Source: Octopus vulgaris (Eukaryota). Taken from it: 64,000 nucleotides of DNA. Location: contig OX597823.1 in the NCBI GenBank assembly GCA_951406725.2, forward strand, positions 16,120,001 through 16,184,000, read 5' to 3'. This document shows, one piece after another, positions 1,055 to 64,000 of the stretch. Every line of letters begins with the position of its first letter. Positions within the stretch are counted from its first letter, which is position 1. A model generated the notes under the pieces. That model saw nothing but the letters and a program-made list of their open reading frames with translations, was not told the DNA's origin and ran no database searches. Both the position numbers and the translations under genes were made by a program.

Positions 1055-1776
1055 AGTAACAATGAAGGGTGAAATTAATTAATTTGGAATAATTATCAAT
1101 TACACCAAGTAGTCTTCGGCATGTAAAAGCCTCATTCGAGGAAAATTTAAGTAATACTAATTCGTTGCTAAACCCTTAATTGCTTAGTATTACTTAAATT
1201 TTCCTCGAATGAGGCTTTTTACATGCCGAAGACTACTTGGTGTAATTGATAATTATTCCAAATTAATTAATTTCACCCTTCATTGTTACTGATAACCATA
1301 TTCATCCCAGTAAATGACCACAGCACTTTGTCTTGGCTACACGCGGGTGGGAAGCGACTGGTGACACAAACTTTCATTCACACTTTGAATTTGGTGATAC
1401 TAGTTGTGGCTTCTAGCTCGCTCTGATACTGAGTTGAGTTGGTGCCTTCTAGTATCTCAAAATTCAATATACAATCATTCATGATTGTTTGTATCCTGCG
1501 CTGATGAGAGAAGAAGTTTGGGTAAGGTAGAATTATCTAATTCTTATGCTTTCCTAAGACTTGATTTCGAAACGTACGTCCGTAGGTGACTTAAAACTGT
1601 ATGATAGATTGCCGTCAATTCATTCTCTCTTACCTGTTTGTGTTTGCCTTTCAAATGCTGTGTTTTTACTGAGATCTCCTTTTAGTAGAAGAAATAGCTA
1701 TAATCTCTTTGACTGCTATTTCTAAATTCGGTGTGCGGTAAGGCAATTCGTTGCTAAACCCTTAATTGCTTAGTAT
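1055..1776 (+). mobile_element. Hammerhead-bearing PLE/retrozyme-like non-autonomous element in (TA)n
   Basis: ~106-bp inverted arms 1055-1160/1184-1290; 32-bp direct repeat 1159-1190/1745-1776 (period 586); internal hammerhead; TA tracts on both sides. Confidence 0.75.
1495..1586 (+). ncRNA. Type I hammerhead ribozyme (intact core)
   Basis: Stem I CCTGCG/CGTAGG; CTGATGA 1501-1507; long stem II; GAAAC 1569-1573; palindromic stem III ACGTACGT; GUC site 1578-1580. Confidence 0.85.
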
Positions 1777-1796
1777 ATATATATATATATACATAT

Positions 1797-1963
1797 ATAC
1801 AACGGGCTTCTTTCAGTTTCCGTCTACCAAATCCACTCACAAGGCTTTGGTCAGCCCAAGACTATAGTAGAAGACACTTGCCCAAGCTGCCACGCAGTGG
1901 GACTGAACCCGGAACCATGTGGTTCGTAAGCAAGCTACTTACCACACAGCCACTCCCACGCCT
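1797..1963 (-). mobile_element. tRNA-derived SINE family B, 5' part
   Basis: Head GAGTGGCTGTGTGGTAAG...GGTTCAGTCCC shared with 8997, 29391, 39390. Confidence 0.85.
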
Positions 1964-2451
1964 TTGTGGTATCTCCTACATATCCGAAAGGCGAAGCGAA
2001 AGGCCAAGCTCGGCAAGATTTTATCTCGCCAGGCTTGGACCTTTTGTGTGGAGGCGGGCCGCACTCAACGAACTCTACGCCTAATGTTTCCCGGATACTT
2101 TATTTTTATGAATCTTAGAAAGATAAAACTCAGAATGTATTAAAGCGGGATTTGAACTCGGAACGTAAAATAATGCAGTCTTCTGTTGTGTGATAATGCG
2201 TGGCACACTGTACGGACTGTGTTAATTAACTGCCATTCGTTAAGAAGTTTAAAAATAAAAAATAAAAAGAGAAGAAATGATGAGATTAATCATAAGAATG
2301 GTTATTTTTCTAACTTAAATATCTAATACGTTTAAGATATCTCTTGTAAATATTTTCTCTGATATGTTATCTACCTACCGCATTTCTATTTATACATCTG
2401 CGGGACATTCACGCACGCACGCGCGCGCACAAACACACACAGATATAGTAC

Positions 2452-3022
2452 ATATGCATATGTGTGTATGTGCATATATATATATATATAAAATGTATGT
2501 GTGTGAGTATGTATATGTGTGTGTATATGTATGTGTGTATATATGTGTATATATATGTGTGTGTGTATGTGAGTGTATATATGTGTGTGTGTATTTATGT
2601 GCATATATGTGTGCGTATGTGTGTAAGTGTGTATATATGTACATATATATGTGTGTGTGCATGTGTGTACATATATGTGTGAGTATATATGTGTGTGTGT
2701 ATGTGTGTATATATATATATGTGTGTATATATATGTGTGCGTGCATGTGTATATATATGTGTGTATATATGTGCATATATGTGTGTGTGTGTATGTGTAT
2801 ATATATATGTGTGTGCGTGTGTGTGTGTGTGTATGTGTGTAAATATATGTGTGTGTATATATGTGCATATATATGTGTGTGTATATATGTGCATATATAT
2901 GTGTGTATATATATGTGTGTGTGTGTGTGTATGTGTGTGTATGTGTGTGAATATACGTGTGTGTATATATGTGCATATATATGTGTGTATATATATATGT
3001 GTGTGTGTGTGTGTGTGTGTGT
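2452..3022. repeat. Compound (TG)/(TA) microsatellite
   Basis: Direct reading; source of the CVY/HTY pseudo-ORFs. Confidence 0.95.
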
Positions 3023-60360: not shown

Positions 60361-60414
60361 AAGAAATTCAAGTTGATGGAAATCATCATCATCATCATCG
60401 TTTAACGTCGTGGT

Positions 60415-63050
60415 AGATAAAAGAAACTAAGGATACAAAGTGGGAAAAAATTGTTGGGTCTTCAGAGCAGTTGTTCAAAATATCTGGTGAGGTGGGATTC
60501 ATGATAACTATTGAGATAGTTAATCAAGTATCAAGGAAAGTGTCATATCTGACAACTGATATAAATACATCATTGTAAACTGCTGCAAAGGTAAAGGAGA
60601 GCCCTAAGAGAGAAGCTATAGAAGAATTAAACTATTGGAATGTCATGAAGTGAATCACAGAACAATTGATTTGTAGCTGAGTAAACTTAGATGAGATGCA
60701 GTTTAGCTTTATGCTCACTAGAAGTATCATAGACGCAATAGTGAGGCAACTGCAGGAGGATACTTGGCTACTTGGCTAACAGAAAACCACTATTCCTGGC
60801 ATTTGTTGACTTGGAGAAGGCTTTAGCAGGGTACTACATTCAGTAATCTAAGGAAATTAAGTGTTGATAAATAGCTTGTGAGGGTTGTACAAGATACATA
60901 AAAAGATGCAAAAGTAAAGTAAAACTCAATGATTTCAGTGATGAATTTAGAGTGAAGGTAGGTATCCATCAAAGCTCCTTTCCTATTCATCAAAGTCATC
61001 TGACCATCACAGAGTTTAGTACTGGTTGTCTGGGAGCCCCTACATGCTGAATCTATAGTAGAATTAGAAAAGAAATTCCAGGCATGGAAAGTAAACCTGG
61101 AATTGAGAGGCCTCAAGGTAAACTTAAAGGCTAAGATGTCAGTAAGTAGGAAAGACAGGATCCTGGTATTGTCAGGGAAAGGCCTTGCTCGATATGCAAA
61201 ATGGTATAGGTACAAAATCCATATGTTGTATCCAATGTAAACTATGGATGCACAAGAGATGTAGCAGAATCACAGACAAGCTAACAGAGAATGTAAGCTT
61301 TGTAGCAATATGTACTATGAGCAAACTGGAAATACATTTTCATCAATGCCTAAATGGCTCACTAAAAGTAGTTGATAGCTTGTTACCAAAGAGACAATTA
61401 ACAAGGGAGGTAGTAGTTCTGAAAATATAGTAACGAGAGTAAGAATGTATTTGGAAAAGTTCAAGGAACAACGTAAGTCTTTTCCCAAAGAGTGAAGGAC
61501 AGATTGTATAATACTTGTTAGAACTGTGATGCTACATAGTAACAGGATATGGGCTTTGAATGCAGAAAACTTGTGAAGAAAAGAAAGGAATCATGCTCCA
61601 ATGGATGTGTAATGTTAATATGCATGAACACTAGAGTAAAAATGAGATAAGAGAAAAACTGGGTATAAGAGAAATTAAGTATGGCATGCATGAGTGGAGG
61701 CTGTGCTAGTATGAGGATGTGATGTATATAGAAGTTAAGTATTGTATACAAAGTTCCAACTGCTCCAAGTTAGTGGAACTTGTGGAAGAGAGAGACTTTG
61801 GACAGGGTAGTGATGGTTGACCAGAAAATGCTGCATCTCACAAAGGAGATGACAGAAGGCCATACTAACTGGATATATGTAGAGCCACAGGAGACCAGTC
61901 CAACCATGACCAAACATACCTAGACACGAGACTAGTGTCTTAGATGCCATGATATCATATATTTATTCTTTGCCAAGCCCACCTTATGCCCGCACTTTGT
62001 ATCTTCCCACCCTCCTCCTGACTGCCATCCCTTCATCAGACTGCATCTTCATTATCCAGTTCACTTCACTCTGACCCTTCATCCTTCTCTTAGATCCACC
62101 TCACCCTCACCTACCCAATACACTTTAACTTCATCATTATACTGGTCCCGCTGTACTTCCAACCAGTACACTCTCTCTTGAATTACCTCTATTGACATCC
62201 AACATCTATTCTTGCCTTTATCACACTAATTGCCTTCACACCTCTAGGGTGCTCTCCAGCCTTCCAATCTCTCACTGACCTCTTATGACAAACTACCCAC
62301 CCGAGATGCTTTCTCTGCATTCACACTGCTCTCCCATCCACACATTTCTATGGCTCCTTCCAGCCTCTCTTTTTCATTATTCTCACTACACTTACCCAAT
62401 ACTACACTCAGCCTCATTTTTTTCTTCTCTCACTGTCCTCTAACCACAGCATCTCTACCTTCTCATTTCTCCCTCTCTTACCTTTAATGACTCTCTCAAG
62501 ATTCCTTACCTCCCCTCACCTATTTTCCTTTCTTTATCCCCTTTTCCTCACATCTTGTCAATATCCACCTTTATAATGTAGAATAGCCCTGGATCTTCTC
62601 CTCTACACAAACTACCTTATAACCTTTCTACTGTCCCTCTCATTTTCAATAACCCATGACAGTAATCTTTTCCCTTCCCCCTGTATTACACCCTCCCCAA
62701 TAGTATGTATTCTGTTATTCTCTCACAACTATAAATCTATTCCTATCATCTGACTTTATTCCCTATCATCAACCCCCACCTAGAAATGTTGCATCCTATC
62801 TCTTCTAGTCTCTTTCAGTTATGGAGAGGGGGCACTTTAGACCAATACTCTTGCAAGCTGCAAAGCAATCTAATATTAGTGTCACAAAAAAAGCACCCAG
62901 TACACTCTGTAAAACAGATGGCATTAGGAAGGGCATTCAACTGTAGAATCATGCCAAAACAGACAATGGAGCACAAGAGTGTTTCCATTCATCAAATCCT
63001 GTCAAATCATTTAATACAAGCCAGCAAGGAAGATGCATAGATGATGATGA
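60415..63050 (+). mobile_element. Degraded 5'-truncated RTE-LINE (~2.6 kb)
   Basis: MQFSFM, FLAFVDLEKA, CIQCKLWMHKRCS remnants, pyrimidine-rich UTR, (ATG)n tail. Confidence 0.8.
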
Positions 63051-63629
63051 CAGAAGGGATTTATATGCTTTTTAATTTCAATTTCTGCAGGTTCAGCTAC
63101 TGAGGGATTTTCTACATGGTTACTTGATCTGGCAGAAATAGCAGCCAATTCTTTTTCAAATAACATCCTACCATCTTAAATAAGGAAAATACCTATTAGA
63201 TAATTTAATCATACATAGCCCTAAAAATGAAACAACCACAGTTGGAATGTTTTTGATTATAAACCTATTGAATCATAATTGACCTTCAGCTAAACATCTT
63301 CTGCATGCTACAAAGACCAATGTTTACTGGGGTTAGTGGGGAAGGTAACAAGGAGCTTTTTATTAATTCAAAATACACCATTAAATATTTCATTATGAAG
63401 CATAAACTAATGAAGAATCTATGCAGTCAATTGACATGCAGGAAATAACAACCGAATCTTCCTCAAATTACACTTTGCCATTTTAAAAATAGGGCACATT
63501 GGACAACATTATTCTCTCTCTCTCTATATATATATATATAAAGTTAATCCAAACAAGAAAGCACAAAAAAACACAACAATGCGAGGACGTGGAACAAATA
63601 TAGTATTATTGGACGCTCAGGAAAGGAGG

Positions 63630-63664
63630 GTTTAACGTTTCGAGCGGAGCTCTTCGTCGGAAAC
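63630..63664 (-). ncRNA. Minimal type I hammerhead (U4C) in a TA-flanked insert (63541-63739)
   Basis: Minus strand GTTT-CCGACGA-A-GAGC-TCC-GCTC-GAAAC-GTT-AAAC; minimal ACGT stem III. Confidence 0.65.
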
Positions 63665-64000
63665 ATAGGAGAAGGAAAGATCCAGAGATGGGAAGACAGA
63701 GGGAAAAAAAAAATCGCCAACACTACACACACGGTCACATATATATAAACAAGGTGGTTATGGTTGACTTAAAGATAGTCTACACTAGCATGACAGAGAA
63801 ACCTGATTGTAGCAGTAATTAACTTAATTCTTACATACATAAATACCTGCATTCTATTATGTGTCAGACATCAGATACAACAATAGAGGAAATAGAGTGA
63901 GAGTAGGTACACCAGCTTGACTAGATTGGCTGAAAGTATCAATGATTAATGTTCAGGTGGAGCACCAAAGTACATGGGCCTAACTTAAGGATAATCAACA

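Follow-up and report, generated by a model that had tools for sequence, protein, structure and literature searches.

A 64,000-nucleotide (nt) stretch of the Octopus vulgaris genome (GenBank assembly GCA_951406725.2, contig OX597823.1, positions 16,120,001 to 16,184,000; the entire stretch is hereafter referred to as the window) raises the question of what kind of mobile elements carry the hammerhead ribozyme motifs that are scattered along it, and why stem III of these motifs is a self-complementary “word” that differs between elements. A previous inspection of the letters alone (hereafter, the sequence-only reading) proposed a radiation of about ten non-autonomous inserts with hammerhead cores, mostly abutting (TA)n tracts, in which the words could act as a family-specific self-recognition code. 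The window is rich in simple repeats, with a GC (guanine plus cytosine) content of 30–42%, and belongs to a genome of 2.8 Gb. The analysis reported here makes it quite probable that the window contains two kinds of elements, namely, 3′ ends of Hydra-type Penelope-like elements (PLEs) and short tandem elements without coding capacity, for which the enzymes of the former are the likely copying machinery, and that the type I hammerheads of both would need two copies in order to cut.

The frequency of the motifs was assessed with two descriptors. The first one, a strict type I hammerhead, yielded a single perfect motif in the window (core at 1501) and none in 30 block shuffles of the window, which served as the background; when up to one core mismatch was allowed, there were three matches (1501, 4103, and 63660) compared to a mean of 0.2 in 15 shuffles. 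The second descriptor tolerates one bulge in stem I and requires only the two outer pairs of stem III, without imposing the inner palindrome; it detected three motifs in the window (0–1 in each of 20 shuffles) and 32 motifs in 800 kilobases (kb) of unselected genome sequence (0–1 in each of 5 shuffles), an excess over the shuffled background in line with the sequence-only reading. The unselected sample consisted of 80 stretches of 10 kb, of which 20 were next to the window and the rest (60) were taken at round coordinates from 17 further contigs; 6 of the 32 motifs came from one tandem array. The words of 27 of the 32 motifs were fully palindromic, and (TA)4 was present within 300 nt downstream of 18 of 31 motifs, compared to 25% of random positions. 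By extrapolation, a density of about one motif per 25 kb translates into about 100,000 hammerhead motifs in the genome.

The window motifs represent eight families of type I hammerheads (A to G, and I), with several copies damaged. Nine of the 11 originally proposed coordinates belong to these families, whereas the remaining two, 15799 and 52759, are not hammerheads. The type I core order, CUGANGA ... GAAA ... UH, is intact at 1495, 17003, and 37841/38174, and a U4-to-C variant is present at 53162 and 63630; the core is damaged at 4095, 18157, and 57597, and absent at 15799 and 52759. Adjacency to (TA)n, noted previously for most of the inserts, was found for six of the eight hammerhead-bearing elements, the exceptions being 18157 and 57597. 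The long stem II arms, for which no tertiary contact was identified, probably explain why the matches listed from an Rfam scan of the window (150 of 159) include no hammerhead family.

What are these elements? Families A, B, and D consist of head-to-tail units of 454, 586, and 432 nt, respectively, and a unit of about 507 nt was found at one locus of family G. The best full-length matches of A, B, and D are 93–100% identical and occur at many dispersed loci with the same junction; in all copies long enough to tell, the sequence loops back to the end of its own unit. The longest frames starting with ATG in these units are 34–61 codons (34 in B and 43 in A), and the GC content is 37–39%. Exact motif matches across the genome numbered 237 for A and 163 for B, with none for the controls. 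The anatomy of the insertions was surveyed in the first 30 loci by position for each of A and B (60 loci altogether). Among the 15 distinct complete insertions of family A (18 rows less three duplicates), all had (TA)n at one end at least and 14 at both ends, nine carried an inversion, and 12 were longer than one unit; for the 22 insertions of family B, the corresponding numbers were 22, 17, 8, and 16. The terminal repeats seen here are partial tandem units. No reverse transcriptase (RT) was detected in the 60 loci, and the two endonuclease fragments found there both belong to neighbors, one located downstream and the other one behind a repeat and a TA tract. A comparable anatomy of partial-tandem, inverted, and tailed copies has been described for PLEs in Craig 2021 (PMC8557442). 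Judging from unit structure and insertion anatomy, we classify A, B, and D as retrozymes without long terminal repeats (non-LTR retrozymes), inserted in (TA)n with Penelope-style inversions; family G probably represents a fourth non-coding tandem family. Tandem units are absent for C and I, rare for F, and none were seen for E. The window copy of family A (4095) is likely to be inactive. Contigs of four presumed-RNA runs cover most of unit A; contigs cannot show ends or circles, and this coverage counts neither way.

Each of the families A, B, C, and G has two preferred insertion ends, about 100 nt apart, and a CCCTT..TTG-like motif stands just before several such ends at the 3′ junctions of these families. 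We do not claim it as a shared 3′ terminal motif given that it is missing from D, E, F, and most other lineages. Elsewhere in the genome, another retrozyme family is found at locus L203, where a unit of about 355 nt is repeated six times; its hammerhead is compact, of canonical size, and has the word ACCGGT.

Family C tells a different story. Longer copies of this family encompass a GIY-YIG endonuclease about 1.1 kb upstream of the motif (PF01541, 26.1 bits, with a cut-off of 22.6), and a genome search with this endonuclease produced 150 scored matches from 13,552 candidates. Twenty extended endonuclease loci, picked for long frames, were inspected and found to contain RT frames with the RWK, DKT, QFD, and YRDD motifs, a CxCX5C linker, and CxxC/CxH around conserved E and N (L152, L144, L133, and others); at L148, the family C motif is located 1 kb past the stop of the endonuclease frame. 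In the family C lineage, (TA)4 lies within 700 nt of 41 of the 44 motifs. These features identify family C as the 3′ untranslated region (UTR) of a Hydra-type PLE, with the clade assigned by motifs. A homologue search with a long retroelement frame retrieved 104 proteins, very few of which carry a name; of those that do, the best match comes from Argonauta hians. A second, younger Hydra-like family, with endonucleases 93–100% identical among the 30 best and with the word ACATATGT, has frames of 743–800 codons (the longest one with one stop in the endonuclease) and an Asn-rich linker that lacks the cysteine motif; this family is a candidate for the recent source of enzymes. In two further lineages, an endonuclease precedes the motif by 300–600 nt, at one locus each. 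For family I, endonuclease fragments were found at 3 of 15 loci, in two cases on the strand of the motif, and endonuclease-like DNA is common to 4 of the 15 (L264, L265, L267, and L273); the window copy probably represents what is left of the 3′ end of a Hydra-type element that is now dead. The window additionally contains a decayed fragment of a Hydra-type GIY-YIG endonuclease, with stops and frameshifts, at 34563–34895 on the minus strand.

Given that C, probably I, and other lineages have upstream endonucleases, part of the radiation consists of clipped 3′ ends of coding elements. This could, in principle, apply to the entire set, with all elements being 5′-truncated or tandemised 3′ ends of autonomous PLEs that have no RNA cycle of their own, a case in which the novelty of the set would vanish. 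Such an explanation is true for C and likely for I, and three other lineages with an endonuclease in front of the motif fit it as well; however, A, B, and D loop back to the ends of their own units and recur at dispersed loci with the same junction and near-identical sequences that include no frame, which makes the extension to the whole set quite improbable. Conversely, the proposal that all inserts are non-autonomous holds for A, B, and D, and probably for G, but breaks down for C and probably for I. The suggested search for autonomous PLEs with the same ends likewise gave a split outcome, namely, a coding parent with RT and GIY-YIG for family C and, among the two Hydra families sampled, none sharing sequence with A, B, or D.

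The second part of the question concerns the palindrome. The 297 motifs found in 1.78 Mb were sorted into lineages, of which 33 were kept as being either recurrent or single with strong stems. We counted only those pairs of stem III that are not imposed by the descriptor and would leave a loop of fewer than three bases, that is, pairs that are impossible in the hairpin of a monomer. Among such hairpin-forbidden inner pairs, 46 of 55 were Watson–Crick, compared to the null expectation of 0.27 (binomial p ~2e-18, with lineages treated as independent), and stem III pairs throughout, in exact register, in 24 of 31 lineages. Calculated hairpin energies are mostly +1.5 to +2.9 kcal/mol, and those of homoduplexes mostly −6 to −18 kcal/mol; for 8-base words, the hairpin is at about +2 to +3 and the homoduplex of a perfect word at −6 to −14 kcal/mol. 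The words ACCGTGCGGT and ACGTTGACGT self-pair through tandem U-G, suggesting a symmetry of RNA rather than DNA. Stem I covaries in one lineage (TTAG/CTAA, TTGG/CCAA, TCGG/CCGA, GCAG/CTGC, GTGG/CCAC). In the tree of 51 motifs of the family C lineage, constructed with the word excluded, the words form the series ACAATTGT, ACGATCGT, ACGATTGT, ACAATTGT, and stem I changes in parallel; an intermediate with a wobble pair appears eight times (these cases are not independent) and one with a mismatch once. This tree was rooted at the midpoint, so that the direction of the series is not fixed. The palindrome is under selection at the RNA level, being kept to its center with compensatory and G-U changes, and, as the pairing energies suggest, is likely to allow two copies to pair in order to cut.

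Alternatively, the palindromes might act at the DNA level, as a protein-binding site, a cruciform, or a mutational by-product, with the ribozymes being dead or monomeric. The damage to many window copies and the long stem II arms that lack an identified tertiary contact could be construed in this way. However, the central U-G pairs in two lineages and the G-U intermediate in a third one preserve RNA pairing while breaking the symmetry of DNA, the core and stem I covary, and the register of stem III is exact in most lineages; taken together, these observations render a DNA-level role very improbable.

The sequence-only reading regarded the inserts as diverse ribozyme retroelements tied to PLEs, with palindromes suited to dimer pairing, which agrees with the findings above, and went on to suggest that the word could serve as a self-recognition code specific to each family. 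Within the window, each family indeed has a word of its own, except for ACGT that is found in two families, but this does not extend to the genome, where words recur across lineages at a random rate, vary within a family, and revert along one lineage. The 33 lineages have 29 different majority words, with four words common to two lineages each; the 12 lineages with perfect 8-mers of the AC..GT form use 9 of the 16 possible words, which is the modal random outcome (albeit for a small sample), and family A alone carries three words. A selected code of the form “one family, one word” is not supported.

This does not imply that elements pair indiscriminately. The family A variants have predicted energies of −14 to −17 kcal/mol for self-pairing versus −8 to −12 kcal/mol for cross-pairing. 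Under the established type I topology, each motif of a dimer obtains the strand that follows the cleavage site from the other copy, and we infer that dimers of these elements exchange stem I in addition to stem III. When both stems were tested together, only 4 of 253 lineage pairs passed, and stem I alone fits in 35 of 253; the count for stem III (45 of 253) was not used on its own, being inflated by weak 4- and 6-nt words. With both helices swapped by the fold, self-preference would arise with no need for selection, and is likely a by-product of the fold, with most cross-family pairs predicted not to form both swapped helices. The competing possibility is that the words are a selected self-recognition code, that is, co-existing families have diverged in stem III, together with stem I, avoiding both pairing between families and cleavage in trans. 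The abundance of different words, heteroduplexes that are mostly far weaker than homoduplexes, the paucity of pairs passing both tests, the incompatibility of stem I in each of the three lineage pairs that share a word, and the energetic preference of family A variants for their own kind are all compatible with such a code. Nevertheless, the 8-nt words are not over-dispersed; zero compatible pairs out of three is the expected result because stem I fits so few random pairs; in one lineage, a word returns to its earlier form by way of a wobble pair; and a tandem transcript provides a partner of the same family in cis. We consider a selected code unlikely. The related, stronger proposition, that two-helix addresses (stem III plus stem I) are actively driven apart in an RNA-level system of self versus non-self discrimination, with word changes splitting families, appears similarly doubtful; if true, selfish elements from dozens of lineages within one genome would possess RNAs that tell kin from rivals and so escape cutting or processing by the latter.

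The favored scenario, in which tandem elements and Hydra-type PLEs share enzymes and dimeric ribozymes, can be outlined as follows. The tandem units, insertions longer than one unit, 5′ inversions, and (TA)n ends of A, B, and D, the coding elements with the same type of motif and likewise with (TA)n ends, and the constraint on the palindrome are features of the sequences. From the calculated energies and the literature, a lone motif would have an unstable stem III, whereas in a transcript of an array, neighboring motifs would fold into a double hammerhead. This structure would swap stems III and I and release unit-length RNA that, once circular, would be guarded from self-cutting, in accord with the published double-hammerhead model in which multimers are cut and monomer circles are protected (Cervera 2014, PMC4209133; Weinberg review, PMC6765202). 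The Hydra RT/GIY-YIG protein would then nick (TA)n and, primed by one target strand or by both, copy its way around the circle, leaving partial tandems and inversions. Under this scenario, any self-complementary word would serve, allowing words to drift along compensatory paths; family preference would be a side effect, and the default partner would be the neighbor in cis.

Several points weigh against this scenario. No coding element that shares sequence with A, B, or D was found in the two Hydra families sampled: the search for a coding partner covered 60 position-ordered and 65 best-match loci in total, and both the 60 position-ordered loci and 30 loci of the second Hydra family gave neighboring insertions only. 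The Hydra enzymes are suggested as the movers of A, B, and D by the target and the anatomy of the insertions alone. Furthermore, Pfam and PDB searches with the long frames gave no RT match, the identity of the RT resting on motifs and on by-eye likeness to the published Hydra alignment. The minimum-energy folds of the window copies of A and C differ from the hammerhead fold, and words of 10 and 12 bases can close a hairpin of 3–4 base pairs (−0.4 to +1.5 kcal/mol). On the experimental side, one of nine frog dimer constructs was cleaved in Li 2026 (10.64898/2026.07.22.740005), and activity was low even in dimers in Cervera 2014 (PMC4209133), while most invertebrate retrozyme motifs cleave efficiently according to Cervera 2020 (PMC7229834); this efficient cleavage, along with the hairpins of longer words, suggests that some motifs may work as monomers. 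Finally, wherever two lineages have identical or compatible words (three pairs), their stems I are incompatible, which a code would predict likewise.

The elements described here resemble several known systems. Similar to metazoan non-LTR retrozymes (PMC7229834; 10.64898/2026.07.22.740005), the window units are non-coding and tandem, with one type I hammerhead each and a GC content below 50%, and are dispersed as monomers and multimers; the metazoan elements have been proposed to be non-autonomous derivatives of PLEs. The window units differ in being at the long end of the size range (432–586 nt), with stem II arms of 43–61 nt, words of 8–12 nt that are self-complementary to the center, strict (TA)n ends, and frequent 5′ inversions, and they are known here from DNA alone. 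The coding elements resemble the Hydra clade of PLEs (PMC8557442), including Hydra-1_Obim, the nearest described family, in the RWK, DKT, CxCX5C, and CxxC/CxH motifs, the latter around E and N, the C-terminal GIY-YIG domain, the 3′ hammerhead, and the inverted truncated copies; insertion in (TA)n is likewise a published property of this clade (Craig 2021, PMC8557442). Compared to the published members, elements of the family C lineage have a greater length (about 3.9 kb), an Asn-rich linker, and a 3′ UTR of 0.6–1.1 kb; the second family carries RWL and lacks the cysteine linker. The hammerheads themselves resemble the minimal motifs of metazoan PLEs and those with a palindromic helix III (PMC4209133; Lunse et al., RNA Biol 14:1499, via the review PMC6765202), which similarly possess an extra base before stem II and form many variable families per genome, and for which dimer-dependent cleavage has been proposed or shown; extreme variability of motifs within genomes was reported in Cervera 2014 (PMC4209133). 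File S2 of Craig 2021 (PMC8557442) already gives different stems III for many families, most of these with a center of 1–2 nt, whereas the words analyzed here are mostly perfect palindromes of even length. The additions to this earlier work are the lineage-level count of hairpin-forbidden pairs, the G-U intermediates on a tree, and the collision test of a code. A literature search found no comparison of homodimers with heterodimers, and Craig 2021 was the only work listed that deals with octopus hammerheads, although Lunse et al. or the supplements of Li 2026 may tabulate words or test mixed dimers.

Two of the window families carry a minimal motif. Family E is a short dispersed repeat that combines a tRNA-like head with a hammerhead-like motif; the motif of the window copy (57597–57642, minus strand) lacks two bases present in other copies, is thus without U16.1, and is defective. 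The head, with A- and B-box-like motifs, lies within 420 nt of the motif in 10 of 18 copies, the spacer is (AAT)n or (AAC)n, and an inverted copy is often present (the window and loci L153–L167); seven copies were found in the 800 kb. ARAGORN called no tRNA in the family E head. Family E is possibly a short interspersed nuclear element (SINE) driven by RNA polymerase III (Pol III) and moved by Penelope enzymes. It brings to mind the schistosome Sm-alpha/Sj-alpha SINE-like elements (PMC6765202), in which a promoter is followed by a hammerhead, with the differences that family E has a minimal motif, the (AAT)n spacer, and Penelope-style inversions. Family F, which with 11 copies outnumbers every other family in the 800-kb sample, has the U4-to-C core change in most copies. 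Among the rejected sites, 52759 has CTGATCA in most of the homologues shown and no partner core, and belongs to the unit of 53162. At 15799, within the repeat family J, GAAAC is located upstream of CTGAAGA, the wrong order for type I, and the following bases vary among copies; a by-eye trial of types II and III yielded no canonical stems. In family J, a hairpin follows CTGAAGA, and the whole arrangement recalls the “half core” of cephalopod Naiad elements in the supplement of Craig 2021 (PMC8557442).

Other features of the window include an inverted repeat at 50905–51325, with 183-nt arms that are 91% complementary and 55 nt apart, in which no hammerhead was called. Two frames at 10290–11219 (plus strand), followed by (AAT)n, seem to resemble the C-terminal region of those non-LTR retrotransposons that encode a restriction-like endonuclease, and a frame at 35234–35809 (minus strand) seems to resemble a mariner-type transposase.

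Table 1. Locations of the elements and motifs discussed in the text (positions are those of the window unless a locus is given)
Feature	Position	Strand	Description
Family B retrozyme insertion	1055..1775	+	inverted 5′ piece (to ~1160), one 586-nt unit plus 17 nt, (TA)n at both ends
Family B complete type I hammerhead	1495..1586	+	stem II arm of 61 nt; word ACGTACGT; GUC site
Family A retrozyme insertion	3708..4388	+	short inverted 5′ piece, 1.4 units of the 454-nt repeat, (TA)n at both ends
Family A hammerhead	4095..4174	+	word ACCGCGGT; GGAA here, GAAA in other aligned copies
Repeat family J	15570..15816	-	abundant, ends in (TA)n; also at L229 and L143
Family D retrozyme	16809..17242	-	one 432-nt unit with (TA)n on its 3′ side; past an unrelated insert, a further 126 nt of unit sequence at ~17629-17754
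Family D complete type I hammerhead	17003..17080	-	word ACCTGCAGGT; GUA site; bulge in stem I
Family I decayed hammerhead	18157..18219	-	old family, 39 relatives at 72–85% identity
Family C	37706..38292		two 3′ UTR fragments as an inverted pair between (TA)n tracts
Family C hammerheads	37841-37926; 38174-38257	-; +	word ACAATTGT; weak 4-bp stem I
Family G	52700..53375	+	old unit of ~507 nt split by a common repeat (~52844-53079); includes the non-hammerhead site 52759
Family G hammerhead	53160-53222	+	core CCGAAGA; word ACAAGATCTTGT; old family
Family E	57540..57808	-	tRNA-like head at 57742-57808, then (AAT)n, a minimal hammerhead-like motif, and a short tail of tandem repeats; does not abut (TA)n
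Family F	63538..63738	-	dispersed element of ~200 nt between (TA)n tracts; loci L086-L100
Family F minimal hammerhead	63630-63664	-	core CCGACGA; word ACGT
Second Hydra-like family	L308, 3033 onward; L309, 1915-4314	-; +	near-intact frames

Dimer hammerheads, PLE-derived retrozymes, and Hydra elements that target (TA)n have all been published, and with the mechanism already in print, the surprise for a specialist is modest; new are the families described here, the lineage-level statistics, and the Hydra-type parentage of family C. Together with the young copies, the words that occur naturally in series, G-U intermediates included, offer a panel for the study of double-hammerhead cleavage and orthogonal RNA pairing. 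The findings extend a known system, at high density, to a cephalopod-type genome, and tie retrozymes inserted in (TA)n to Hydra-type Penelope elements as their likely mover.

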